Shown here piece after piece: positions 1-63,085 of a DNA stretch of 64,000 nt. Source of the DNA: Deltaproteobacteria bacterium (GTDB lineage: Bacteria; SAR324; NAC60-12). Every line of letters starts with the position of its first letter. Positions within the stretch are counted from its first letter, which is position 1. The notes below the pieces were generated by a model. The model saw nothing but the letters and a program-made list of their open reading frames with translations. It made no database searches and had not been told where the DNA came from. The stretch lies in NCBI GenBank assembly GCA_002685535.1, contig NYXK01000211.1, positions 28,803 through 92,802 on the forward strand, written 5' to 3'. Made by a program: the position numbers and the translations under genes.

Positions 1-498
1 TTCCAACGGGTCCCCACAATAGGATATAATATCAACCGCTGGATGAACCATGCTTCTGCGCATGGAGCGCCGGGTTCGAGTATCGGTAGTGTAAGCGGAG
101 AAGGATAATAAGCACGAGCTAGGGCTCCAGCTCCAACCATGGGTATGGGTGGAGGTATGAGACAGCCACAAGGAATGAGTATATACGGTGGACATTCCAT
201 GGGCGGTGGATGAATGCCATATATGCCCGGACAGCCACGAATGCAAGTCCCACGTTTGCGACAACAACAGGGATTGCAAGGGTATGACTTTGATGCTCAT
301 AGTATAATAAGTTCGAGGTGGGGGAGGTAGACGCCCGAAGGAATTAGAGAATTGAGACCTCGTGTTAAAAAATGGGAGTTGCAGCAGCTGCAGCAGCTGC
401 AACGGCAGCAGATGATGGGGATGGGGATGGAGGGATCTGGGGGGTTTGGTGGGGGTATGTATGGTGGGGAAATGGGGATACCAATGGGATATCAGTGA
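1..498 (+). pseudogene. Gly/Met/Gln-rich coding remnant, probably RIP-inactivated (continues off the left edge)
   Basis: Frame +1 reads as low-complexity protein (PAPTMGMGGGMRQPQGM...LQQLQQLQRQQMMGMGMEG). It is broken by TAA TAA (106-111), TGA (211), TAG (328) and TGA (496), each one C>T away from a Gln or Arg codon. AT/TpA-rich sequence follows to ~1500. Confidence 0.45.
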
Positions 499-1258
499 TG
501 GTAGTAAACCTGGTGCCATTAGGAGGCTTGAAGCGCTGGATCAAGCTAGTAGTAAGCCATCGTGTCAGATGAGAATGCCAGGTGAAGAGCTCGTACGGAC
601 GACTTGGGATAACTGGATGAAAGCGGCTGTGTCATTTTCAACGGAATTAGGCTCTTGGGCTGGAACCAAAGCACTCTTTGACGTTGTCTTCGATACCTTC
701 TGATAATTTGTAACGTAACGTATGCCAAAAAGAAATGATTCACTCACTGAAAAAGAAAAACCTCAAAGCCTAAGCTTGCCGAGTGGGATATGTGTAGATC
801 TGATTTAACGGGCTCTGGAGCGTCGAGGCCGAGGCCTTCTAAAAGCTGTTGAAATCTTAAATATTCATTACAACTTACAAAGTCCCTCATTGAATTTCGG
901 GTAAGACTCGATACTCAAGAATACTCTAATATACTTCAAATTAATCCTGGTATACAGATTCCCTCGTGTATTCTTTTCATCTTTCTTTCCCGCTATTTTA
1001 TTTTGTCCTCGCTATGTACCCTTTTCATTCTGAATTCATAAGTAAAATATTCCCTCGTAGCTCTTTCCCATGAAACCTTCTCGGAATCCCGCACGATATC
1101 CCTCATAAGCTATACTGTTCTTGTATCCTCCCTTCAAGATCTCCCTCACAGAGATACAATCGTATCTCCAAATTCCGCACCTCGAATGACTTACGATTAA
1201 TTAAAAATAGGAGAAGCCATATCACGCTTTCACAAAAAACTATTACCCCCGCGGAGAT

Positions 1259-2138: not shown

Positions 2139-5100
2139 CTACGCACCCTTATCCCCCATAACATCAACATACCCCCTCCCCTTCTTCTTCGCACCCTTCT
2201 TCGCTCCCGCCCCACCAGCGCCATCCTTCCTACTCCTCGGCACTGGCGGTCCCAGCAAATCATCAATACTACTCGCATTACTCATGCCCGTCCCAGGCCT
2301 ACTAGGCGGCCCACTACTCCTCAGACTGCCATTCGACTGACTCCTATTCATCAGCGGCGGCGCATTCAGATTCACGCTCCCGTCATCGCTTTGTGGAGAC
2401 GAGGAGACGAGGTGGTGCTGTGCGTGCGTGGAGTCGCTGACGGCGCGCTGGGCGAGCATTTGGGGTGCCATGCCGGGTGCCATGTTCATAGGTGTGGGGA
2501 TTGGACGGGGTGCGCTTGTTGGTGGACCGCCGGCTGCGGAGCCATTGCTTGAAGGTGGACCCATATTCATGGGTGCGCTAGCTGTCCTGGGAGGACCAGC
2601 TGCTCTGGGAGGCGGCGGTGTTGCGCTCTTCGCTTGAGTGTCTTCGGCGCCGGCTTTCTTGTTGACCCAACGCTTGAGATCGGGGTCGTAGTAGAATGAT
2701 GAAGCTTCGCCTAGTTTAGCTCGGATGGGCTTGTTGGGGTTGGCGCCCATGTCTTGGGACTCTTTCTTTGCGCCGCCGAACCAACCGCCGAGGCCCCAGC
2801 CTTTCTTTGCGGGAGCTGCCTCTTTCGCCTTTTGAGCTAAGGGGATAGTGTTAGTAGATGCGTGGAATGTGGCGGATAAGAGTTTAAAAGACTTACCATC
2901 TGCTTCAGCTGCCTTCCGGAACGCCTCGTCCGCTTCCTTGTCTTTCTCCGCTTTGGTCTTCTCACGAGCTGCGGGTGCAGGTGCCGCCTTGAGGCCCGGG
3001 ATATCGTCGTCATCGTCATCCATGAAGGACTTCTTCTTGGGGCGAGGTTCGTCTGGCGAATCCGGCTCGTTCTCTGGCTCGTATGGTACATATCCACTGG
3101 TTGGAGGTTCGTAACCACCAGAATATGGTTGATACCCGCTGGATTGAGGCTCCTCGTGAGAAGGTTCCTGGTAGCTGTTTATAGCAGGAGGCTCGTAGCT
3201 ACTTGACCTAGATTGATCGTGCGTAATCGAAGGTGGAGAGTCAAAGTTTGACGTGGGCTGCTGATAGGAAGGCTCTGAGGGCGTGTATGAAGGACGATGC
3301 CCGTCAAATGAGTTGACAGCTTGAGGGGAAGCGTATAGATTTGTCGGAGGCTGCTCAGTGACTGGGGTTTGTGGAGTGTACCCGGAAGCAGGTTCATATG
3401 GCGAAGGGTTGCCAAAAGGAGTATATGCTGATTGAGGCGTGAAGCTGGATCCGGTCTGGGGTGTGTATCCGTTCCCCTGAGCAGGCTGACTGTTTGGGCG
3501 ATAATCAGACATCTGTCTTTGTGGTTCGTAGCGTTTGAACTCGCTTGATGATCTCTCATCAAGGGAGGTTCTAGGTTGAGAACCGTACGAGTTACCACCT
3601 TGATCCTGGTTGCCGTACTGCGATGCGCCAGGTGCATATCTCGAGCTTGCTTTAGTGACTGGTACAGGTTGAGTACCATTGATGCCCAGACCTCCAGGGT
3701 ATGAACCATATATGTCTGCATTGGACGGTGATCGACTAATTGTAGGAGTCCCTCCAGCGATTCTTGAAAATGGCCCAATATCAGCTGCACCTCCAGTCGT
3801 TGATTCAGCAGAAGCAGCTTCAGCCTCATCACCTGCAACGAACTTATTGAAGGTAGCCCAGACAGATCCTTTTGCCTTATCAATGCTGGGCTTCCATGAC
3901 GCATTCTCATCTTTGGGCGACTGCTTCAATCTCTTGCTCAAATCCTCGAGCTCAGAGATTAATAATCCATGATGATATGGTGATCTCCTTGTCTGGGAAG
4001 TGATAGAAGCTCCGATCGCATCGCAGTATTGCAGGGCTTTGTCTCTAAAGCCATACTCTGCCAACACCTTTGCATGCTGCAACTTGTAGACAGCCAAATG
4101 CGGGCTCGAGACCGCAATGGTCGAGGTACTTGACAGAGACATGCCGTACTCAAACACTTCGCTTAGCAGGACTGGCTCTAGCTCTCTGTCAAAATCGTAC
4201 GGCTGCCTCAACTGGTCAGAACCAACGAGCACAATGCTCGCTTGGGGGTCATCGACTCCACCGAAGATAGACAGACTTCTGGCGAACAAGAAGCAGATGT
4301 GAGCTGCTTCAGCTCTGCCGTAGCCAGAGAGTAGCTTGCCCAAAGCATTGAGAGCTTTGCTATCGTCGGTGCTGCGGTTACTGAGGACCAGTCCAAGTGT
4401 CTCGCGCCATCTGTCCAAACCATCAAGAGCATCTTTCGATGGGCCAGCACCATTTGAGGCACTGACCATCTGGAATCCGGCTCTGGCGGATGGAGGCACG
4501 AGCTCATCGATACTCTCCTCAAAATTCCCTGCAAAGATCTCATAAAGGGCTGCAAGGGGCTCGACATTATCGCCAATGATCTTGACTTCTTTTTGAATGA
4601 ATTCTTGAGCGACCTGTTTGTATAGCTCTTTCGAGACTGTGTTGGAGATGAGCATAGCATGAGCCCAGAGCCGCTTATCAACGGCATCCCAGACAGCTTT
4701 CTCGCGCTCACCACGCAGCAAATGCTTTCTCAATTGGTCCACAGCTGCAGGGTCCACAGGGTCGGCTCTTGTCGTTGAATTTGATGAGTGTGAAATGCCA
4801 GACAAATCAGCACCAGTGGCATACAGTGGTGCAGAAGTATTTTCCTCGTCGAGTCCAGGCGACAAAACAGCCCGAACGGCTTTCTCGGCTACGGGAGTAC
4901 CTTCTAAAATTCCATCATTCTCGATGAATACTCGGAGGATTTTCCACAAGAGTATCCGCTCTTCGATACGTTTGTCTTCATGAGACAGGGCCGAGACTGT
5001 CCGCAGATAAGATGCGTTCTGCTCTAGGATTTCGATGCCTGATGCGAGCCACGTCGAGACTTCCTTCTTTTTGGATTTGCCCTTCAGTGGCCCAGGGAAA

Positions 5101-18601: not shown

Positions 18602-19585
18602 TCAATTACCAGACATCTCATAGACTTCTCTACCCTTCTTCGCCATGCTCGACCTAAAAGCCGGCATCTCATGCCTCTGCTGCGGTACTTCCATCTCCTG
18701 CGGTCCCTTCGGACTCTCCGCGACATGCTCAACCAAATGTTCCTCGTCTGACTTCATCCTCGTCCGTCGCCAAACCAACCAAGCCCCAGCAGCAATCGCA
18801 AGTATCCCAAGCACGACACCGATGCCGATTCCAGCTTTCGCTCCTCCCGATAAAGAACTGGCTTCGACTGCCAATATCGTCGCTGCTGTTGAAGCGCTCG
18901 AGCCGAGCGAATTCGACGGTGTTGTTCTTGCTGTGCCTGATGAAGACTCCGCGGTGGGCGCCGCGGTGATCACATTGAAGCCATTCACATGCATCCCAAA
19001 GACAATGGTTGGGCCAGAAGTTAGCTGTACAGTCGTAGTCTGCGATCCCCAAGGTCCAGAAGGCGTTGTAGATTGGTAGGCAAGAGTCTCCCCACTTGTG
19101 AGCAGAGACGTACACTGTGAAGGAAAGGAATCTTTCCCAGTGACCGGGACATTCAACTCAAATTCCCTAGATCGAGTCAGTTACTCTCGAGCCCCTTTAC
19201 GGAACGTAGCAAGTACTCACGAAGGACAACAAAACACATGCTGAGTGCTCTCGCTAACCAGCAGCGTCTGAACCGCACTATACGCTCCAGGACACACAAA
19301 CGTCGGGCCCAACAGCGTCGTCGTCTCCGTATCCCGATCACTCTGTCGTAACGAGGACGTAACTTCAGTCGGTAAACATGGAATCGCGGTCGGCACAATG
19401 CTCTCTCCAAAAAGAGGATCAAATGCGATCAAGTTCCCACCGAGTCCAGCTCGCTGAGCATACAACTGCGTCGAGCAGGCTGCGATCGACGTCCACCTCG
19501 AGCTGATCGGTAGCCAGGCTGTTGTCTTCCCGTCAACGACTTCAAGGGTCTTGTTAGGGAAGAAGAAATCGTCTGCATCGGACAT
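18602..19585 (-). CDS. Single-pass cell-surface protein (Cys-patterned ectodomain, Ser/Thr stalk, GIGIGV TM helix)
   Basis: Two ORFs joined in frame by intron 19167-19220 (GTGAGT..CTGAC..TAG). Shows CPGAYS and FCCPS motifs, LSGGAKAGIGIGVVLG TM helix and an acidic tail with PQEM/VYEM repeats. Confidence 0.75.
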
Positions 19586-35293: not shown

Positions 35294-36809
35294 ATGTCTC
35301 TTGCGACAGCAACCTCGGCGGCCAGCTTGGCGCTGATTACTCCAAGCTTGACGACGACTTTCATGCCAAAGATCACAGCCTGCACGGAGAATAGAGTCAC
35401 GATGCTGGCAAACCGAGCTTTTCAGATATGGATGAATGCACCAGTACCAGTACCAGGAACGACCTTCACGGATTGCTATCCAAGTCAATTCATAACGAGC
35501 CTGCTTCTCTCTGCTGGAAGCGTCACTCAGCCCGCTTTCGCTCCGCTGATATGCCCGACACATTATTCGGCTGTCGGCCCGTATACCTCGAATTATATCG
35601 CTTGCTGCCCAAGGTATGTTTATTTTAACAGGTATCCAAAGCGTTGGATTCTAATTTCACAGCGAGTACTCGTTCGCGCAGCCAGAAAGCACAGTGTTCA
35701 CTGACCGCCCAGCATTTGGCGGAACGTGTTATAGCAACATTGATATGGCAACACCTGTTCTGGTAACGGCCTACGGATCTGCCAGTGTCACGGCGACAAG
35801 TTATTTCACGGCTACAGTCACAAATGCCCAGGCTTACGCCTACCCAATAGACGGATATGCTTTTGGGGTTGCGGAGATTGAGAGCAAGCTCAGTACTGGT
35901 ACAAGTACTCCGACAGCATCTCCAGGAAGCTCGGCAGGTGCAGCTGCTGCGACGTACACTGTGAGTACTCGCTTGAATCATCTCTCAAAACAGTCTTTAA
36001 CATGTGATAGGTTTTGGCAGGTGAAAACCCGGCTTTCACACCCAACTCCGTTACTGCGAAGGGAGGAGATACAGTAGTCTTCCGATTCACCTCTGGTAAC
36101 CACAGCATCACCGAATCCACCTTCGATCATCCTTGTGTCAAGCTTGCAGATGGAATAGACTCTGGATACCAGCCAGTTGTCAATACTCTGAACCCGTCAG
36201 ACTTCTCGTTTGACGTAGCCCAAAACACGTCTCAATGTGAGTTCACAGAGTGCAGTGAGAATAGGGCTTCACTAATGACATTCAGGGTTCTACTCCAAGC
36301 AGGCAGGTGAATGTGGGGATGGAATGACTTTCGCGCTGAATCCAACCAACGAGCAAACCGAGATACAATTCCAGCTAAATGCAGTCTCGCAGAACGGCAC
36401 CTCGACCGAGGATTCAACTGGCACTTCTACTGGCGTCAAGGTGGGGGCCAGCATAGGAGCTGTTGCTGGGGCTGCCCTGATCGTCGGTCTAGTCTTTCTG
36501 CTCTTCCGTCGTCGGCGTCGGAGCCAAGGAAATGCTATTGATGAAGCTATCAGGGATGAGACAAATGGAAAGGTTGGAGGAGGGTCGAGCTATACCGACA
36601 CGGAAGCAGGCAAATCGCCACTGACAGAAGTTAAACCACATGTCCCTCCGAAGGGCGAGGAGCTTCATGGATACTCTTCTCCTTCTGAGCTAGGTGTCAA
36701 CCGCGATCCGGCTGAACTTGCGTCAGAACAATCCCCTGCCGAGATGTATAGTCCACATGAGTACCATCCTAACGCATATCCAATGAGACCGAGCGAGCCG
36801 CGATTGTGA
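35294..36809 (+). CDS. Single-pass surface protein: Cys-patterned domain + degenerate cupredoxin-like domain + TM helix
   Basis: Introns 35614-35662, 35961-36010 and 36237-36285. Motifs CYPSQF, ICPTHY, IACCPS; FTPNSVTAKGGDTVVFRF.SGNHSITESTFDHPC; WFYSKQAGECGDGMTFALNP; VGASIGAVAGAALIVGLVFLLFRRRRR. Confidence 0.85.
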
Positions 36810-51233: not shown

Positions 51234-51998
51234 TCACATAATCCCCTCCTGACCGATACCGGCCACCCATGGGCTGTTGAAATCGACAAATTGGAAGCAA
51301 TCCTCTGCTGCCTCCCAAGTCTCCGATAATTCGAGATCGGGGTTGTAGAAACTGGCCAGCACTACGTCTGAGGCATCCGGGAAATAGTCCTCTGGGGTTT
51401 GTATGCCACTAAAGTTCTGCCAATCTTGCAAAAGCTCCGAGGTGCAAAGACTTGGGGTCGGCAGCTCGGGGATATTGGTCTCCTGTTCATGCGCGAAATT
51501 CGGATACGTAGGTGACAGGTGATGCGGCGTTGTTTTTTGAGCATCCACGATCTGCGGAAATTCATCCACCGATTTCAACAACGAATTCTTCGCTCTGTAC
51601 TCCCCAATGGTCATGCCCATAATCTTCTTGAACACCCTGCAGAAATGACTCTCCGTCAATCCAACTTCCTTCGCCAGACCCTTCACACTCCACTTGACGG
51701 CCCCAATTTCTTCCCTGACGATCAACTCACATGCCTTATCCACGGCCAAGATCTGTGGATCTCCTTCGTTCTCTCTCAAATTCGGACGACATCGTTTGCA
51801 AGGACGAAATCCGGCTGCTTCAGCTTCAGCTGGCGTGTCGTGAAAAACGATATTTGCTCTACGTGCGAGGCGCGAAGGACACGTAGGGCGACAGTAGATC
51901 TTGGTCGTACAAACGCTATAGATGAAGGCGCTCGCCGCGAGGGGATCTCGCCGTTGGAGGGCAGCCCATCGGCTGCTTGGGGATGAAAATGAAGTCAT
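51234..51998 (-). CDS. Ada-type methylphosphotriester-DNA methyltransferase / transcriptional activator (N-Ada Zn domain + AraC HTH + acidic tail)
   Basis: RWAALQRRD, TTKIYCRPTCPSR, AEAAGFRPCKRCRP (four Zn cysteines) and LAKEVGLTESHFCRVFKKIMGMTIGEY HTH. Confidence 0.93.
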   Translation of the reverse strand: MTSFSSPSSRWAALQRRDPLAASAFIYSVCTTKIYCRPTCPSRLARRANIVFHDTPAEAEAAGFRPCKRCRPNLRENEGDPQILAVDKACELIVREEIGAVKWSVKGLAKEVGLTESHFCRVFKKIMGMTIGEYRAKNSLLKSVDEFPQIVDAQKTTPHHLSPTYPNFAHEQETNIPELPTPSLCTSELLQDWQNFSGIQTPEDYFPDASDVVLASFYNPDLELSETWEAAEDCFQFVDFNSPWVAGIGQEGIM

Positions 51999-52335
51999 CA
52001 CGACCTTCCGTAATTAGCGCTTCGCGGGGGAAGTATCTAACGTAATACTGTCTTTACAAAAGTTGTTCAGCTCATCTCTCAAGACCAACTCGTATTATAC
52101 ATGGGTGAGTTTATGTTGATTGGACTGTGATGGAAGTCACAAATCACGACGTGAAGTTGAAGTGCGGGGCGAAAAATCATGAGTCAGCCTGAGCTGCTCT
52201 TGAATTGACCAATCACAATGGATCTTACGAATATCAACTCTCGAACATATAAGCCCCGGACGTAGATGACCTGCTCAACGCTACAACAACAGGAGTTCTT
52301 CATCTTATCCCTCCCCCCATATTTTCTTTGCTAGG
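51999..52335. promoter_or_regulatory. Bidirectional promoter shared by the Ada-like and AGT genes
   Basis: 337 bp between divergent ATGs. Opposed CCAAT boxes (ATTGG 52119-23, CCAAT 52209-13), palindromes at 52126-41 and 52144-54, TGAGTCA at 52180-86, TATAA near 52248. Confidence 0.7.
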
Positions 52336-52797
52336 ATGGCCGTCACAGAATATCAAGAGGTAACTTCACCCTCCCCCTGTTGCCCCACTCTAAGCGAATT
52401 CATTGTTGACAAGTATCAAGCGAGTCTACGCTCTTCTGCGCCAGATCCCGTCTGGAAAGGTCTCTTCGTACGCTGCACTTTCTAAAGCACTTTCATCATC
52501 ACCACGAGCGGTTGGAGGTGCACTGAGAAGGAATCCATTCGCGCCTGAAGTGCCTTGTCATCGCATTATTTGCGCGGATGGAGTAAGGTAGCCGCAATCA
52601 ATTGAGAGACCGCAAGCTAACAACTCCAGTCGATTGGAGGATTTAAGGGAGAACCACAAGATGCACCCTCAGGTATAAATCAAAAGGAGAAGTTGCGATT
52701 GCTGAAAAGTGAAGGAGTGATGTTTGATGAGAGTGGTCAGCTGTTGGACAATTCTAAGTGGTGGAGCAGTTTCGTGCCCATTGAGGCAAGGTCGTAA
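52336..52797 (+). CDS. O6-alkylguanine-DNA alkyltransferase (MGMT/Ogt C-terminal domain type)
   Basis: Introns 52360-52420 and 52583-52629. Spliced product MAVTEYQERVYALLRQIPSGKVSSY...RAVGGALRRNP...VPCHRII...IGGF...KLRLLKSEG, with the active-site PCHR intact. Confidence 0.93.
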
Positions 52798-54094
52798 AGG
52801 AAACAAGCTAGATATATCAAAATCCTTGAATCTTTCTAGTGGTGTACTCGGAGGGAAGATGTGCCACGAAGAATGCCCACTGTGGCGGTTCTCGGCTGCC
52901 TGCATGAGGCAGTTCTGCACAGCCCCATAAGCTGTTCAAATGTTACACAAGCTTGAAACTGTAAGTTCACTGGTACTACTAGATGTAAACCGTGAAAAAA
53001 CCCTCACGTCCTTTAAAAGCCTCGCTCCCATAATCTATGGTGTATCAATCTGTGCAACACCCTGGATTCTGTTTCGTACCTCCAGCCCCAAGGATATCAG
53101 GAGTCTGAATCGATACGGAACTTTGGTTGTCTAGTTTCAGTTCCAGGTATCGCAGGAAGTCATGTATGAACTTCAGTATGCTCTCCAGAGATAGTTCAGA
53201 CATGACTTCCTGACGCTTCAGCCTAGTCAATCTAGACCCCTCGTTGACGAGACCTGGCTTCTGGGAGCTTGTGAGAGCAAGCATATCGTCGAGCTCTTTC
53301 CGAGTTTATAATGCCAAGGAATTCCCCGGTATGAGAGCGAGTACTCAATTGAGCAACATTTTGAAACATCAGGGTTGTCTAATTTCGATCCGGAAAAAGG
53401 ACAGCCGGAGAAAAAGAGAATCTCAAGCCGATTCGGCGGCTATTGTAAAGCACTCAAGTAGCGACGAACAATACTGCCTCCAGCCTCAAGCCGTTGAAGA
53501 GGAAACCAAATTTGCATCTTCCAGTAAGGGCTACAAAAAGTCTTGTGAAGAAGACGAATTGAATAATCTTTCAATATCCCCCAAGATCCTTTCCCCTGGT
53601 GACGAAGGCGATTCGAGTCTGAGAGGTCAGCTTGGTGTGGAAGGACGAATGGTTATGCTGTCGATGGCGGTCTGCACTCGAGGCTCGAGACCAAGTCGCA
53701 ACAATCTATCGACAATTCTCATTCGTCTGGAGGTCAACGGGTGAACGATCAAGTCGAATCTGTCGACATCCTAGCCGACATTTCGATTCTTTGACATCCG
53801 CACTTCTCGTTTTTGCTCACGTCCTCGAGACTGGTGTCCCTTCCAAAATGGTCAGATGTAGTCAAGCTATTGATAGCAGGGCTTCTACGATGTAGGATAC
53901 AGTGGTGGCCCCTTGCTCCGGTATGGAGGAAGTGTCCAGAAAATGGATTATTCAGGGTATCCTGGCAATGTGTGAGTACCGCGATCTACTTCAAACAGCT
54001 TCTCCTCGAGTGGTTCAATTGAACATGACTACTCATACGCTATAATTGCTGAGCGGAGCTGTATTTCGACACCGCATCAGAGGTAGCTCGGCAG

Positions 54095-55017
54095 TTGATC
54101 CAAGATCTACCAAGAACAATGGAGCTAGACCAGCCCGTACTCCCATTCCACCAAAATAGTCGTTCAGCGAGCTTTCACCCAGCGTCCCCAATGATGGCCA
54201 CTGGAGCACATAGCATATCGACATGTGTGCCTACCAAAATCAGCACTCATTCTGAGAGCATAGGAACGACAGCCCGCCTTAATCACGATAGAATCGGTGG
54301 CAATCCTTCAACTTCAGACGAAAGCTACCTTCACTGGTGTATCGATTCAAACGCATCTGATACTCTCTTATTCCCACTATTGATATCCCGCCTAGACGAC
54401 ACCTCCATAGTCCAAAGGCTAAGAACTACCTACCAAGCAGTGAAGGGATTACGAAAGTGGCTGTTGTTGACAGATATCGAGACGGTGAAATTCGTGCTGG
54501 TATTGACTTTCTTTCAATCTGAACTCTTCCGAGAGCTAATGGAGAGCAGTTCAAAAGAGGGGCTCAGAAAATGGGCCTCAGGATCTCATAGTCTGCTTGA
54601 AAGAGGACATGCCACCAAAGACAGATCCAAACTACCGATATCTGAGTTCAGAGCCTGTCGAGCTTCTTCCAAAGTTCGCCACGCAGACGCTACGGCACCA
54701 CTTACGGTATTTCCACAAGTGCAATTCCAAGGACATCGAAAACATCATGCACCTAGTTCCCAAAAAGGTCAACGGCATGCTGGAGAAGAAGTTCGGTGCT
54801 GTTGGCTGGGGTGTGCAAGCCGTTTCCGGGATTGGCATTGTGGAAATGCGCCATTCCTCTCCTGCTGTCACAGGTTCCGCCAATAATATTCGCCATTCGC
54901 TGGCTGCTTTTGCATACGTGAGATTTTCAGAATGCGTTCATGTTTTCGGCATATTTACTCATGCTGTTGAATTTCATTCTGTTGGTTCCTGAAAGGTGGT
55001 GCGCTAGTAGGACTTGA
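54095..55017 (+). pseudogene. Pseudogene of a fungal hypothetical membrane protein family (may extend upstream to ~53250)
   Basis: YLHWC..DD..LR..Y..VKG..KFV exon, then intron 54500-54549. Frameshifts near 54560 and 54830, and an in-frame TGA before DFQNAF in the hydrophobic C-terminus. Confidence 0.6.
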
Positions 55018-55364
55018 CCAAATGAGACGAGGCCCGGAGCTCAGAGAAGTGTGACTGACTGTCAAGCGACGTGGAGATGGTTTAGATTCCAGAATGATTC
55101 AAGGACCTATTTTAGATATCATATGTAGAGGTTCGTAGGAAGTTTCGATTGCGGGAAAATCGATATCAAGATATTCAAGCAATTCTATTGAGCTTCCCCA
55201 GCCGCAAGTTGTGACAAATCTTTTTTGGTCCTCAGAAGAAGGTTGCGGTAGAGGTCAAGGGTCCCCCCTCTCGCTTGTGAGTTTACAGGCCACAAAATTT
55301 GTTACATTTAACTATCCAAATTGGCACATTTTCGACATCACATTACAAAAGCGTGCTGGAAATA

Positions 55365-55520
55365 TCCGGAATGGTGTAGTGTAAGTACTTCAGTCAGATA
55401 CGTCACTTCTTGAAGCACAATTAACAAATAATCAGGGCTAGCATTTCTGCCTCTCATGATCTGTCTAACAAGCAATCAATGTGTTCGCAGGAGACCGGGG
55501 TTCAATTCCCCGTTCCGGAA
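55365..55520 (+). tRNA. tRNA-Glu(CTC) with two introns: a GT-AG intron at 55381-55435 (D-loop) and a canonical 37/38 intron at 55457-55485
   Basis: Removing both introns gives a complete cloverleaf: acceptor TCCGGAA/TTCCGGA, D stem GTGT/GCAT, loop AGTGGCTA, anticodon stem TCTGC/GCAGG, loop CTCTCAC, T arm CGGGG-TTCAATT-CCCCG, discriminator A. Confidence 0.92.
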
Positions 55521-55526
55521 GAAATC

Positions 55527-55531
55527 TTTTT
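55527..55531 (+). terminator. RNA polymerase III terminator (T5)
   Basis: TTTTT 6 nt after the tRNA discriminator, with further T-runs downstream. Confidence 0.8.
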
Positions 55532-56045
55532 GTGCCTTTTGTCTATTGATTTTTGCGTCTAAGACTTCTCTAGCACCTATATGCCGTGGTATAAATTGAA
55601 TAACATCTCTGTGTTGTGCCATCTTTTACTTTGCACCATTTTCGACAAGGACAGGCTCAGTGCTGTTATTCCTTCTTCCCTGCAACACCTTTGAGGCCAA
55701 CAACGCACTGTCCCAGCACGTCAAGTAAGGAAATGTAAAGCTCACTACATGTTATATTCATTTCAATCTTGATTTCAATCTTGTACAGTAATTGAGTATA
55801 ATGTCACCATTAATTACAAATCCTATTTTGTTGTTTTTGTCTGTTTAAAACATGGTTCTCTTATCGGCGCTGCTCGAGCTCTTATCATAAGCGCGTCGCC
55901 CGCCTTGACCGCGAGGCTCGACTTTCACTTCTACCTACTCTGCCATCCTCTACAGAGCATCGCCGCCACGACCTCTTTATACAGCATGCTTTGGTCGCCA
56001 TGATAATGATTCACGATTGAACGGCATCCACTCCGACTATACACT

Positions 56046-59000
56046 ATGGCCTCCATCTGGTCTGGGAAAGCTCCTCCTGACACGCCAACATCCAAAGATG
56101 TCTCCGACGTAGCAGACACAGGCCTAGCAGATGTTGGTCTCCCAGCGCCCCAAGCTACAAGTGCTCCCATGGGCCGTCCTCAGCTCCAAAGAAATCAACC
56201 TGCGCCTCCTCCTCCCCATCAGCCTCCGCCACCTCCATCTCCGAACCCGAACGACTCCCTCTCGTTGATGCAGCTCCGGCGCATTGTGACCGATTTCCCC
56301 AAAATCGACCCCACGACATACGCATTCACGTACGCCGATGCTGCTTCGTTTGAGGAAGAGATTGACGAGTGGTTCTCATACAATGATGCGGAATACAAAC
56401 GTTTGCAGAGGGCGAGGGACACTTTCGAGAGGCGATGGAGGAAATTCTCGAACAAGCCATGGCTCGAATCGCAAGACTGTCAGAAATTTGTAGAGCGGGA
56501 AGTCAACGGATTGCATGCGACAGACCTACGGAGACGCTGCAAAAGTCTACAGACGGTCCTTCATATCGTTCTGGGGGTATGGGACGAGACAGCAGGAATC
56601 AAGTCGGAGGAGGCTACGAAAGCGAAGACCAATGCTACGTCTAAGCATCTGGAGAATATGAAAGCTGGAATTGTCATGATTACTAACGCTGGTGGTATTG
56701 CGCTTGTCTTCCAGGTTCTTCAGAATGCGTTCAAGATGCTCTGGGATGACGAGTTTCGGGAAACCAAGTTACTGGATGAGGATATACCATACATTCAAGA
56801 CGAGCTTGACAATGTGACCACTGTCATCTACATGCTTGTAGAAGGTGTTCGCAATGACCCTATTGGCTTGGCATCTGCTCGAGAGCAACTTCGTAGGTTC
56901 AACACGAAGCCACAACTGCTCTGTGCTAATCGCAATAGTGGAACTGAACTTGGTTGACTATTTCGTCAAAGTTACAGCGAGACTCCGATGGGATGAAGCA
57001 AACGAGTTGCCACAGACTAGAGTCAGCCTCTCTCTTCTCATTTAACTCATCATTACTGACTGTCCCAGATATTTCTGCTCTTTTGGAAGACCATCTTACT
57101 AGTTTTCGGCGGCAGTGATGAGATTGAGGACGTAAAGAGTGCCACCAGCGAACTGAGACACATCAATGGCGAAGGAGGGAAGCTCATTACAGCGTCTCCC
57201 TTAGACTACCACATTTTCCGCCAGGAAATCACATCAAAATACCCCGCATATACCCCGCCACCACCACTCTTACCCCTCGAACCCGATAACAATTCCATCT
57301 TACCACCACTCCCAAACCGACCGAGTAGAGCAAATGGCGCCAATGGAATCATACCTCCGCCAATGAACGTGAATAGTAGTGGAGCATCCATTCTTCACCA
57401 ACCGGTACATATCGCCACTCCAGCACCCTCACCGCCTCCATCACCTCCAGTCGGAGGCAAGGCTGGAAAGAAACAAAATTACCAGACCAACCAGAACTTT
57501 CCGTTCATGTATCCACCATTAGATAGCACCAGCAACAGTGCCGGAGGTAAAGGTGCGGCTGGCTTACAAGAACTGCTGGTTGGTAGGAAATGGGAGGGAA
57601 GTGACATACCCAAGTCCATTATTGAAGCTGGAGCCTTGTTCGCGAAACGTATGCGGATGACGAGAGCCATGCGACAATTGTGGAATGAGCGAGAGAAATT
57701 CCTAAAATATGAGCGAGGATGGGATGGTGTTGACGAGGATGATGATATCGAGGAACTTGACTTGGATACGATATTAGGAAAGAAGGCTGCACTCGAGGGC
57801 ATGAAACCTATCAAGCCTGATGTCGATTATGGACCTAATGCTGATGTTGGCGATGATGTTAAGAAAAAGCTTGATCTTGTGGAACAGTTCTATGTAAGTT
57901 CTTCATTCCTGATCATAGAAATTGGTTCTGACCAGGCAGCAAAACTCTATACCTCATCTCCAATCCCTGGTTATTGTTCTGCTCAAAGCAGTACTTGCAA
58001 ATGTGACTGCCCTGATCACACAACCGATGGGGCAGCAACAAGGCTTGGCATCTGGATTCAGGTCCGATGTCAATCTTCGAGGCAATGGAGCCCAGGGCCA
58101 GAATAGACAGCAAGACCCTGCGAATATTCCATTGCCCACTACTGTAGACCCATCCGAGCTCCCAATCGAAGAGATTGAAGCGATGCGATCACGGGAAATT
58201 ACGGCGAAAGCTGTATCTGGGATTCTTCTCATGCTGCTGAAGTGGTTCAAGGTTTCTCGTATGTCCCTCGCTCCCTGTGCTGTGCTGTACAATGCTAAAA
58301 GGTGCAGATATTCTCAAGTTCGAGTACCTCACCCAGCTATTGCTAGACTCCAATTATCTGCCACTTGTTCTGAAGCTGTTCGCTCACCAGGAAATCGATA
58401 AAGTGGTCGAAAGCAGAACAGATCGCGATGAAATGAGGTACGTTCCACTGTGCATCAACTTGACTTGTGCAAGCTAATACCATGAAGCTTCTTCGCATTC
58501 TGTAACGAGCATAGTAAGAACGTCCCAATCCCAGACCTGTCAGGGCTGGAGGCCGAGGAAAGCGAAGACGAAGCCGCACCACCTGCTATCAAGCGCAATC
58601 GAGACCTCCTCGTCACCGGCTCAGAAGACAAACTTCCAGCCCTCGCATTCCAAGAAGGTCAACACGCCGGCAAGCGCGAACGCCCCGAGCTCGACGAACT
58701 TGGCTATCCAGCAACAGAGCCCCCTTACCCAGACGAACCCATCACCGAATTCTCGTGGCGCAACTTCTTCTCCTCCATCAACTTCCTCCGCATCATGCAG
58801 AAGATCTGCAAGAACAAAGCCCATCGCAACCTTCTCCTCGTCCAATACAAATCCTCCAACATCCTCAAGAAGTCCCTCAAGATCCCGCAGCCCGAGCTGC
58901 GCTTGTACACGCTCAAGCTGTTCAAGAACCAAGTCCCGTATTGTGGCCGTAAATGGCGACAGGGCAACATGCGCGTCATCACGGCCGTGTACCTACACTG

Positions 59001-59262
59001 CCGCCCGGAGTTGAGGGATGATTGGTTGGCGGGAAGTGATGTCGATGCGGAGGTTGAGGAGGCGCTGCCGCTGGAACAGGCGTTGCGGGCGTTGACGCAT
59101 TGGCATAATATTAAGCGGTACCCTGAGCAGATGGGCGCGGACACGAAGTTGTTAGAGGAGGAACATGATTTTTTCGTCAGGGAGCTGGAGAGGATGGAGT
59201 TTATCGATGAGGGTGGTGAGGAGGAGAGTGTTGATGGGGGATGGATTGGGTATGCGCCTTGA
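56046..59262 (+). CDS. FAR11: STRIPAK component Far11/HAM-2/PRO22 (N1221 + DUF3402 domains), multi-exon
   Basis: FEEEIDEWFSY, FRQEITSKYPAY.PP, ILKFEYLTQLLLDSNYLPL, KSSNILKK.LK and KWRQGNMRVITAVYLHCRPELRDDWL motifs; five GT-AG introns. Confidence 0.95.
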
Positions 59263-61826: not shown

Positions 61827-63085
61827 ATGACGACATTTGATCTCGACGATATTCAATCGAAGACCGAACCCTGGCTTCAAGGCACGAGATATGCCTCGAA
61901 GTCAATCACTCCTCTATCTGGTGGAACAGTGAACTTCACCTTCTTAGTCAATTTAAAAGAGCCTCTCGATAATGGTACAGAAAAAGTGGTTGTCAAACAC
62001 AGCGAAACCTTCGTGAGGCATACACCATCATACAAAGTCTCATTGACACGTATTGTGAGGAACTTTAATCCCATCATTGGAAGCCAGTTTCTATGACCAA
62101 CTTGACTGGCTGACAACAGTAAAGGTCGCAGAACAGCAATGCCTCCGGACTCTATCGTTCCTCCCTCCAAACGTCAAGGACAATTCGAGAGACTCAAAAT
62201 TCCAAGTCCGGACTCCGACGTGTCTTTACTTCGATGAAGCGGCGGGAATGCAAATCCACGAATATCTTCCCAACGGCGTCGACATAAAGACATACCTACT
62301 AGAAAGAGCCATAGATCGCAACGAAAGCTCACTTGAACCCGCATTTAAGAGCCTAGGACAAGCTCTAGGGTCATGGGTACGCCACTTCCATGACGAGGCT
62401 GCTCATCATCTAGATTTGGTTGATGTAGTCGCCAAGAACAAAGAGGCTCAGCAGGTGCAGCAGCTGGTTACCTACCAATTCGCTGTTGACCGAGTCAAGG
62501 ACTATCCAGAAGTTCTGGGTGATGTAACGACGATTCTCCGAGAGGTGCGGAAGCTCGCCGCAGACGAGCTAGAGGGTGGATCGTTGCAGGTTATTCATGG
62601 TGACCTGGGTCCTGCCAAGTAAGTGACTGATTTCTCAACGTCCTGTCAAAATGTTTTCTCAATTAGCTCACTTGACTTGTAGTATTCTTATTCCAAACGC
62701 AACCATACAAGAAGGAACCGAAACTCTAGTCTTCGTGATCGACTGGGAGACAAGCCAACTTGGGGTCTCGAACATCGACACCGGCCAAATGATCGCAGAT
62801 TTATACCGGCTCTGGCTTTGCAGAGGTCTTGAGACGGCACTGTGGGTACTGCGAGGCTTCTGTAAAGGCTATGGTATCGTGAGCGAAGAGCATGCTTTCA
62901 GGACAACCATTCATGCTGGCGTCCATCTGATTTCTCGGGGAACGATCGATCGTGAAATGGGAACGATGGATGAGCTTGAGGTCGTTGCGAGAGCGGGGAG
63001 GAATATCCTGCTTAATGCATATCGGAAAGACAGGAAATGGTTCGAAGATGGTGATTTGGCTTGCCTGTTTGATCCGGTGGCGTGA
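61827..63085 (+). CDS. Aminoglycoside phosphotransferase/choline-kinase-like small-molecule kinase
   Basis: LSGGTVNF, VVVKHSE, HGDLGPANILI (across an intron) and VIDWE motifs; introns 62055-62124 and ~62619-62682. Confidence 0.85.

Follow-up and report, generated by a model that had tools for sequence, protein, structure and literature searches.

The central result of this analysis is a tRNA-Glu(CTC) gene that carries in its D-loop, in addition to an ordinary 37/38 intron, a 55-nt insert bounded by the signals of a spliceosomal intron (Table 1). The gene lies in a 64-kb stretch of DNA, here called the window, that was analysed over its whole length. The window is fungal, as indicated by an ORF upstream of the tRNA (53214-53744) that encodes the C-terminal part of a Velvet factor domain (PF11754, E=2.9e-14). 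The interrupted locus is not an artefact of assembly, since it is present in 20 sequencing runs from 13 studies, of which one run is on record as RNA. Our reading, which we hold to be probably correct and which is drawn from sequence, is that this is a live and selected gene of a filamentous fungus, that the insert is a U2-type GT-AG spliceosomal intron, and that the transcript would need the spliceosome and then TSEN.

The presence of a D-loop insert in an otherwise standard tRNA-Glu(CTC) gene is confirmed. Neither the window as a whole nor the intact locus yields a tRNA call from ARAGORN, and Rfam gives no tRNA match at the gathering score, nor any at E<=10 within 54800-56100. With 55381-55435 removed in silico, position 55380 is joined to 55436, an 8-nt D-loop with G18 G19 results, and ARAGORN calls a 72-nt tRNA-Glu(CTC) with a 29-nt intron in the anticodon loop. 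A one-base ambiguity (G|G) allows two equivalent registers for the cut, of which GT..AG is one. The 37/38 intron shows both the anticodon stem and the A-I pair. The initial annotation had put forward this anatomy from the letters. Its coordinates for the insert, the GTAAGT, TTAAC and CAG signals and the restored D-loop are all borne out by the sequence and by ARAGORN after excision, and the intact stems, B box, terminator and C32:G(-3) pair at the 37/38 intron that it described are likewise there in the sequence.

Chance occurrence of the insert's signal set is low. A GTRAGT start, a YAG end and a YTRAY motif with its A 6-20 nt from the end coincide in 2 of the 127,890 stretches of 55 nt on the two strands of the window. 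The same locus stands out in a scan by trial excision that covered the window and 8 non-redundant loci (118,859 nt, with 33 B-box-like sites and 4,012 GT..AG excisions): the sole site that turned into a tRNA only after excision was the one at 55381-55435. ARAGORN is lenient at this locus, where six different excisions give some tRNA call, and the standard 72-nt form appears only with 55381-55435. Numerous near-identical copies across a genome would mark an introner-like element; the insert has no second copy in the 64-kb window, which in so short a stretch says little on that point. The free fold of the precursor is unremarkable (z=-0.89). The insert had been said to match the mRNA introns of the window in size and signals, and this agrees with the seven ORF-joining candidates listed in Table 1, which were chosen by eye out of 67 listed and are candidates from DNA alone. 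They are 46-68 nt long, begin with GTRAGT or GTATGT, and have a YTRAY motif 7-22 nt before a YAG end.

Table 1. Coordinates of the interrupted tRNA-Glu(CTC) gene, of its counterparts in L013 and L006, and of other features of the window (positions are those of the sequence named in the first column)
Sequence	Feature	Position	Strand	Remarks
Window	Exon 1	55365-55380	+	16 nt; nt 1-16: acceptor 5' strand, D-stem 5' strand, A14 G15 T16
Window	D-loop insert, spliceosomal type	55381-55435	+	55 nt; between nt 16 and G18
Window	Insert 5' splice site GTAAGT	55381-55386	+
Window	Insert branch motif TTAAC	55421-55425	+	A at 55424, 11 nt from insert end
Window	Insert 3' CAG	55433-55435	+
Window	Exon 2	55436-55456	+	21 nt; nt 18-37: G18 G19, D-stem 3' strand, anticodon stem 5' strand, CTC, A37
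Window	37/38 intron, canonical TSEN type	55457-55485	+	29 nt; G at -3 opposite C32 (ARAGORN after excision)
Window	Exon 3 and A73	55486-55520	+	nt 38-73: anticodon stem 3' strand, 4-nt variable loop, T arm with B box, acceptor 3' strand
Window	Discriminator A	55520	+
Window	T5 run, Pol III terminator-like	55527-55531	+	7 nt past discriminator; equal distance in L013
Window	Upstream block, -30 to -10	55335-55355	+	About 19 of 21 positions the same in L013 (counted by eye in the 5' flank alignment)
Window	N1221/DUF3402 gene	56010-59262	+	Downstream of tRNA; pieces split by short introns
Window	Ada_Zn_binding/AraC-type (HTH_AraC) ORF	51234-52013	-
Window	ORF-joining intron candidates	35614-35662, 35961-36010, 36237-36285, 57894-57939, 62619-62682	+
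Window	ORF-joining intron candidates	19167-19220, 2829-2896	-
L013	tRNA-Glu gene	434-589	-	Insert at 518-573; two introns, arranged as in the window
L006	D-loop insert	3343-3396		54 nt; GTTAGT..CTAAC..TAG, between nt 15 and 16

The single match of the exon-2 pattern in a prokaryote genome collection is a homologous locus from a diverged relative. The contig, JBPPME010000069.1 (L013; 2,331 nt, GC 45%), is filed under a Candidatus Saccharimonadales MAG and looks like a stray fungal contig, that is, eukaryotic contamination of the bin; RF00005 has 41 matches counted over the whole MAG that includes it. By blastn the flanks of its tRNA gene are 79% identical to those in the window over 272 nt, with a colinear block at window positions 55857-55922, and the similarity to the window is confined to the surroundings of the tRNA locus. 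The L013 insert is 56 nt long and occupies the same site, and after its excision ARAGORN calls tRNA-Glu(CTC). Of the 57 columns in the alignment of the two inserts, 40 match, 14 mismatch and 3 are gaps, and the score of their interiors is reached in 8 of 5000 shuffles. Since this interior similarity is significant, the insert predates the split between the two lineages.

To judge from the alignment, the exons around the insert have been held constant since that split. All 72 exon positions are identical (16/16, 21/21 and 35/35), against 77 matches in 118 columns of the 5' flank (a 110-nt flank), 22 matches in 29 columns of the 37/38 intron and 42 matches in 66 columns of the 3' flank. Differences thus fall in 0 of 72 exon columns and in 89 of 270 non-exon columns, flanks and introns together (Fisher p=2e-11). 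When substitutions only are counted, the rate in non-exon columns is 24%, at which the probability of no change in 72 positions is 3e-9; for exon 1 alone, the probability of zero changes is 0.0125. The splice signals are also kept: GTAAGT is the same at 6 of 6 positions, TTAAC has become CTAAC within the YTRAC consensus, and CAG is the same. This amounts to one consensus-keeping change in 13 signal positions against about 3 expected (P=0.14), which is not significant alone, and hence the weight of the case lies on exon conservation. The initial annotation had offered the comparison of orthologous inserts as a test of its claim, and what L013 displays is an unchanged insert site, with GTAAGT, CAG and a YTAAC branch motif 11 nt from the end all retained, and a drifted interior between unchanged exons. 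L013 has an additional AG 4 nt past the branch A, upstream of the CAG presumed to be used, and we take this AG to be probably too near the branch for use. L013 also shares the T5 run and the block at -30 to -10, the latter being possibly a Pol III upstream or TFIIIB region.

The interrupted gene has ordinary relatives. When metagenome contigs were searched for the exon-2 pattern, 12 loci were recovered, of which 7 are distinct (L001=L008, L002=L012 and L005=L007=L009=L011, with L003, L004, L006 and L010 single). Six of these 7 are ordinary tRNA-Glu(CTC) genes in which exon 1 is joined directly to G18 and the 37/38 intron is 18-32 nt long, and in 4 of them (L001, L002, L003 and L005) the exons are identical to those of the window. 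A pattern made of the exon 1 end, a gap of 40-70 nt and exon 2 had 0 matches in the metagenome contigs, and the exon-2 pattern had 0 matches in viral contigs. The trailer of L001 is the same as a 30-nt loose end in runs X11 and X15, which places the paralog contigs in the same species or in a sister species. A 93-nt contig of run X11, in which exon 1 runs straight into 55436, has a depth of 40 versus about 12 for the unique flanks. To go by these sequences, the interrupted gene is one of at least five copies and would be redundant for tRNA supply. Within the same run, the 39-nt 3' exon stretch that is shared (55482-55520) stands at a depth of 82 versus about 12 for the unique flanks, which suggests that roughly seven gene copies share it. 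The D-arm differs in a further paralog, which lies on a 44.5-kb contig. As for the 37/38 introns, a G at -3 is found in 8 of 8 genes compared. The window's intron has lost a small CTGT..ACAG hairpin that is kept in L001, L002, L003, L005 and L013, and this loss could hint at relaxed constraint. The 37/38 intron of L013 is nearer to that of paralog L003 (26/30) than to the window's (22/29).

With at least four normal paralogs carrying identical exons, the gene could be a dead copy: a spliceosomal intron would have inserted, by reverse splicing or transposition, into a redundant tRNA-Glu(CTC) gene and killed it, the exons having stayed tidy by conversion or luck. We regard this as unlikely, although of all the alternatives it survives best. 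It accords with the absence of spliced RNA from the runs examined and with signal conservation that falls short of significance on its own, and the exact restoration of the tRNA upon excision would follow from an origin by intron insertion and is not proof of function. Moreover, a passage of PMC5832005 says that tRNA families evolve in concert, so part of the exon identity could stem from gene conversion. The difficulty is the age of the insert, which is older than a split that altered 24-33% of the neighbouring non-exon columns and left 0 of 72 exon positions changed. Had a conversion tract run through the D-loop, the insert would have been lost with it in at least one lineage, whereas it survives in both. 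Conversion of exon 1 is implausible, since its 16 nt lie between a unique flank and the insert, with no homology on either side to prime or support it. The window's 37/38 intron, counted at positions where L013 and paralog L003 agree, has 4 changes of its own in 30 columns, against 0 in the flanking 56 exon nt (P=3e-4), and such changes between unchanged exons argue against a recent conversion tract and for selection. Selection on the exons appears to be the better reading than gene conversion, which may have acted on exons 2 and 3.

A third insert comes from a locus in another fungus and looks like an independent case. L006, a metagenome contig of 3,466 nt, breaks off within the T loop of a tRNA-Glu(CTC) gene with the acceptor TCCGAAA, an acceptor common to L006 and the normal genes L004 and L010 (one metagenome). 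Its insert lies 1 base 5' of the site in the window and L013, and exact GT..AG excision gives the same D-loop. The fungal 5' consensus GTRNGT fits all three inserts, which begin with GTAAGT (window, L013) or GTTAGT (L006). Their branch A is 11 nt (window, TTAAC), 11 nt (L013, CTAAC) and 12 nt (L006, CTAAC) from the insert end, their 3' ends are CAG, CAG and TAG, and their lengths are 55, 56 and 54 nt, respectively. No homology of the L006 insert with the other two was detected, the shuffles that reached the score being 709 of 2000, 4545 of 5000 and 2884 of 5000, and 454 of 5000 for the tail; nor did tblastx detect synteny between L006 and the window. The 37/38 intron of the window gene groups with paralogs of its own genome, not with L006. 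L006 may thus have gained its intron separately, at a neighbouring site, or may carry a very ancient intron whose position shifted by 1 base in the length-variable part of the D-loop. Seen across both fungi, which are distant, inserts at adjacent D-loop sites without detectable similarity in sequence suggest either such a shift of an old intron or reverse splicing into nuclear pre-tRNA that struck the D-loop more than once.

The broader proposal, to which we would give even odds, is that selection maintains, in some ascomycete lineages, tRNA-Glu(CTC) genes whose transcripts would need the spliceosome and then TSEN plus ligase, that the inserts at adjacent sites would reflect a slid old intron or repeated reverse splicing, and that these genes may form an uncounted class through which tRNA supply would be tied to the spliceosome. 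A D-loop insert is present in 3 of the 9 distinct loci with an exact exon 2, in a sample that is biased by having been seeded with one such locus and by requiring an intact exon 2. The initial annotation had suspected a hidden class of tRNA genes missed by standard scanners. Two further members, L013 and L006, can now be added, and in neither does ARAGORN find the tRNA-Glu gene while the insert is in place.

If the gene is live, as we favor, its transcription would most likely be by Pol III, given that the B box is intact, box A is nearly complete, no T4 run lies inside the gene and a T5 terminator follows it. Set by eye against the uninterrupted gene, box A in the DNA agrees at 10 of 11 positions for the window and at 8 of 11 for L006, the figure for the window being so high because the intron's first G occupies the place of G18. 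The G18 G19 end of box A is replaced by GT in the DNA of the window and L013 and is displaced in L006. The insert adds 55 nt to the distance between box A and box B, and TFIIIC tolerates long distances between the two. The three inserts and the 37/38 introns are all free of T4 runs; for the inserts this lends weak support to Pol III, since 4 of the 7 candidate mRNA introns are also free of T4 (3 of 7 contain such a run, by eye). Ahead of the insert there are only the leader and the 16 nt of exon 1, and in an RNA made by Pol III this 5' exon would have no cap. In S. pombe, U6 is made by Pol III and its intron is spliced.

In the order of steps that we propose, the nuclear spliceosome would recognise GTAAGT, the branch A at 55424 and CAG, and would join the two exons so as to recreate the D-loop. 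The fold between D-loop and T-loop would become possible only after this removal, export of the tRNA would come next, and TSEN and tRNA ligase would excise the 29-nt 37/38 intron last. Budding yeast TSEN acts in the cytoplasm, and on that model spliceosomal removal would come first. The insert itself would have originated by reverse splicing or intron transposition into a copy of the tRNA-Glu gene. On the RNA side, no spliced joint occurs in the contigs of the four runs X11, X15, X18 and X20. The metatranscriptome run X15 has a contig over 55321-55492 that carries the insert unspliced, but intergenic DNA is covered at similar depth, so that the contig is indistinguishable from DNA. The insert-bearing locus is nearly unchanged in runs X18 and X20, which therefore bring no added divergence.

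The choice of polymerase has its own alternative, which we consider distinctly unlikely: the tRNA may lie within a Pol II transcript, either by read-through or upstream of the N1221/DUF3402 gene, with the intron spliced as in an mRNA and the tRNA released by RNase P and RNase Z. Pol II transcripts are the usual substrate of the spliceosome, a gene on the + strand begins about 500 nt downstream of the locus (start near 56046), and the X15 contig, which may be DNA, begins 44 nt upstream of the tRNA, beyond the reach of a Pol III leader. Yet the T5 run just past the tRNA is kept in L013, the upstream region is like that of the normal paralogs, and the inserts are all free of T4. The surroundings, moreover, are not the same from case to case, L006 giving nothing by tblastx against the window and L013 matching it only around the tRNA locus.

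It is very improbable that the D-loop undergoes no processing, the locus serving as a TFIIIC-bound DNA element or giving a tRNA-like RNA that retains the insert, since a TFIIIC site requires the B box only and not 72 unchanged positions, and since three inserts with a full set of splice signals in the right geometry would be left unexplained. Scarcely credible is removal without the spliceosome, by TSEN acting on an ectopic bulge-helix-bulge as in Cyanidioschyzon and nucleomorph tRNAs or by another nuclease and ligase: ectopic introns at non-canonical sites are described for tRNAs of a red alga in a passage of PMC3728597, but in the register of the canonical intron (nt 32 paired with intron position -3) the three inserts pair at 2/4 positions of the central helix, 1/3 of the outer and 0/3 of the inner, the best shifted register reaches 3/4 of the central helix (L006), the 37/38 introns in the identical test show the A-I pair and a full outer helix, and the GTAAGT, YTAAC and YAG set of the three inserts would be left unexplained. 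Identity of the D-loop inserts as TSEN introns was rejected, as no such motif forms and the sites are 16/17 (15/16 in L006) and not 37/38. Removal by TSEN through a bulge-helix-bulge is what the initial annotation had named as counting against its claim, and the pairing test found no such structure in any of the three.

No description of a spliceosomal intron in a tRNA gene was found in a full-text literature search that covered few of the subscription journals; the initial annotation had known of no established tRNA case, and the search is in keeping with that. Spliceosomal introns are described in passages of PMC5855946 for the genes of U6, U2, U5 and U1 snRNA and for rDNA, and a passage of PMC5832005 adds U3 snoRNA genes; tRNA is not among the hosts named in those passages. 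Textbooks and recent reviews keep the two kinds of intron apart: in passages from two recent papers on tRNA, tRNA splicing is set against spliceosomal splicing, and one of them terms the intron types unrelated (PMC12530127; PMC10275265). A 2014 review of tRNA introns contains no word beginning with "spliceosom" (PMC4090602). The nearest likeness is to the fungal U6 introns (and those of U2, U5 and U1 snRNA and U3 snoRNA), which are also short GT-AG introns with ordinary splice and branch signals in the gene of a conserved structural RNA. Unlike the snRNA hosts, tRNA stands outside the spliceosome and has a dedicated splicing system of its own, so that one transcript would need both. The ascomycete rDNA introns (Bhattacharya et al. 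2000, as cited in a passage of PMC5855946) are likewise of spliceosomal type in a structural RNA gene that is not transcribed by Pol II, the difference being that rDNA is multicopy and transcribed by Pol I. Nuclear tRNA genes with ectopic or multiple bulge-helix-bulge introns outside 37/38, missed by standard scanners, are described for Cyanidioschyzon merolae and the nucleomorph in passages of PMC3728597 and PMC3978253; those introns are cut by the tRNA endonuclease, whereas the D-loop insert has no such motif and has spliceosomal signals at its ends. The gene's second intron, at 55457-55485, is of the canonical 37/38 kind (TSEN, with Trl1/Tpt1 in fungi), having the anticodon stem and C32:G(-3), in contrast to the D-loop insert, which lies at 16/17, lacks the A-I pair geometry and is bounded by GT-AG.

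Should the favored reading be true, tRNA would join the short list of structural RNAs processed by the spliceosome, and the transcript would be a natural substrate that requires both splicing systems. It would also be a clean example in which to study the entry of new introns into nuclear RNAs that are abundant and highly structured. Fungal tRNA gene counts by standard scanners would be incomplete, with an uncounted class of genes across fungal genomes and a tRNA supply possibly tied to spliceosome activity.

Elsewhere in the window, the ORF at 54053-54886, between the Velvet ORF and the tRNA, has no Pfam match. The Ada_Zn_binding/HTH_AraC ORF on the - strand stands head to head with short ORFs on the + strand (51234-52591); these resemble, by eye, a methylated-DNA-protein-cysteine methyltransferase, and the two would be a divergent pair of alkylation-repair genes. 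About 470 nt downstream of one of the normal paralogs is a tRNA with a 12-nt intron (L009 9704-9787, L011 1048-1131, L007 944-1027). Its ARAGORN call is unstable, being Asp(GTC) in two loci and Phe(AAA), with another placement of the intron, in L007, which matches L009 at 99.955% and L011 at 99.9%.
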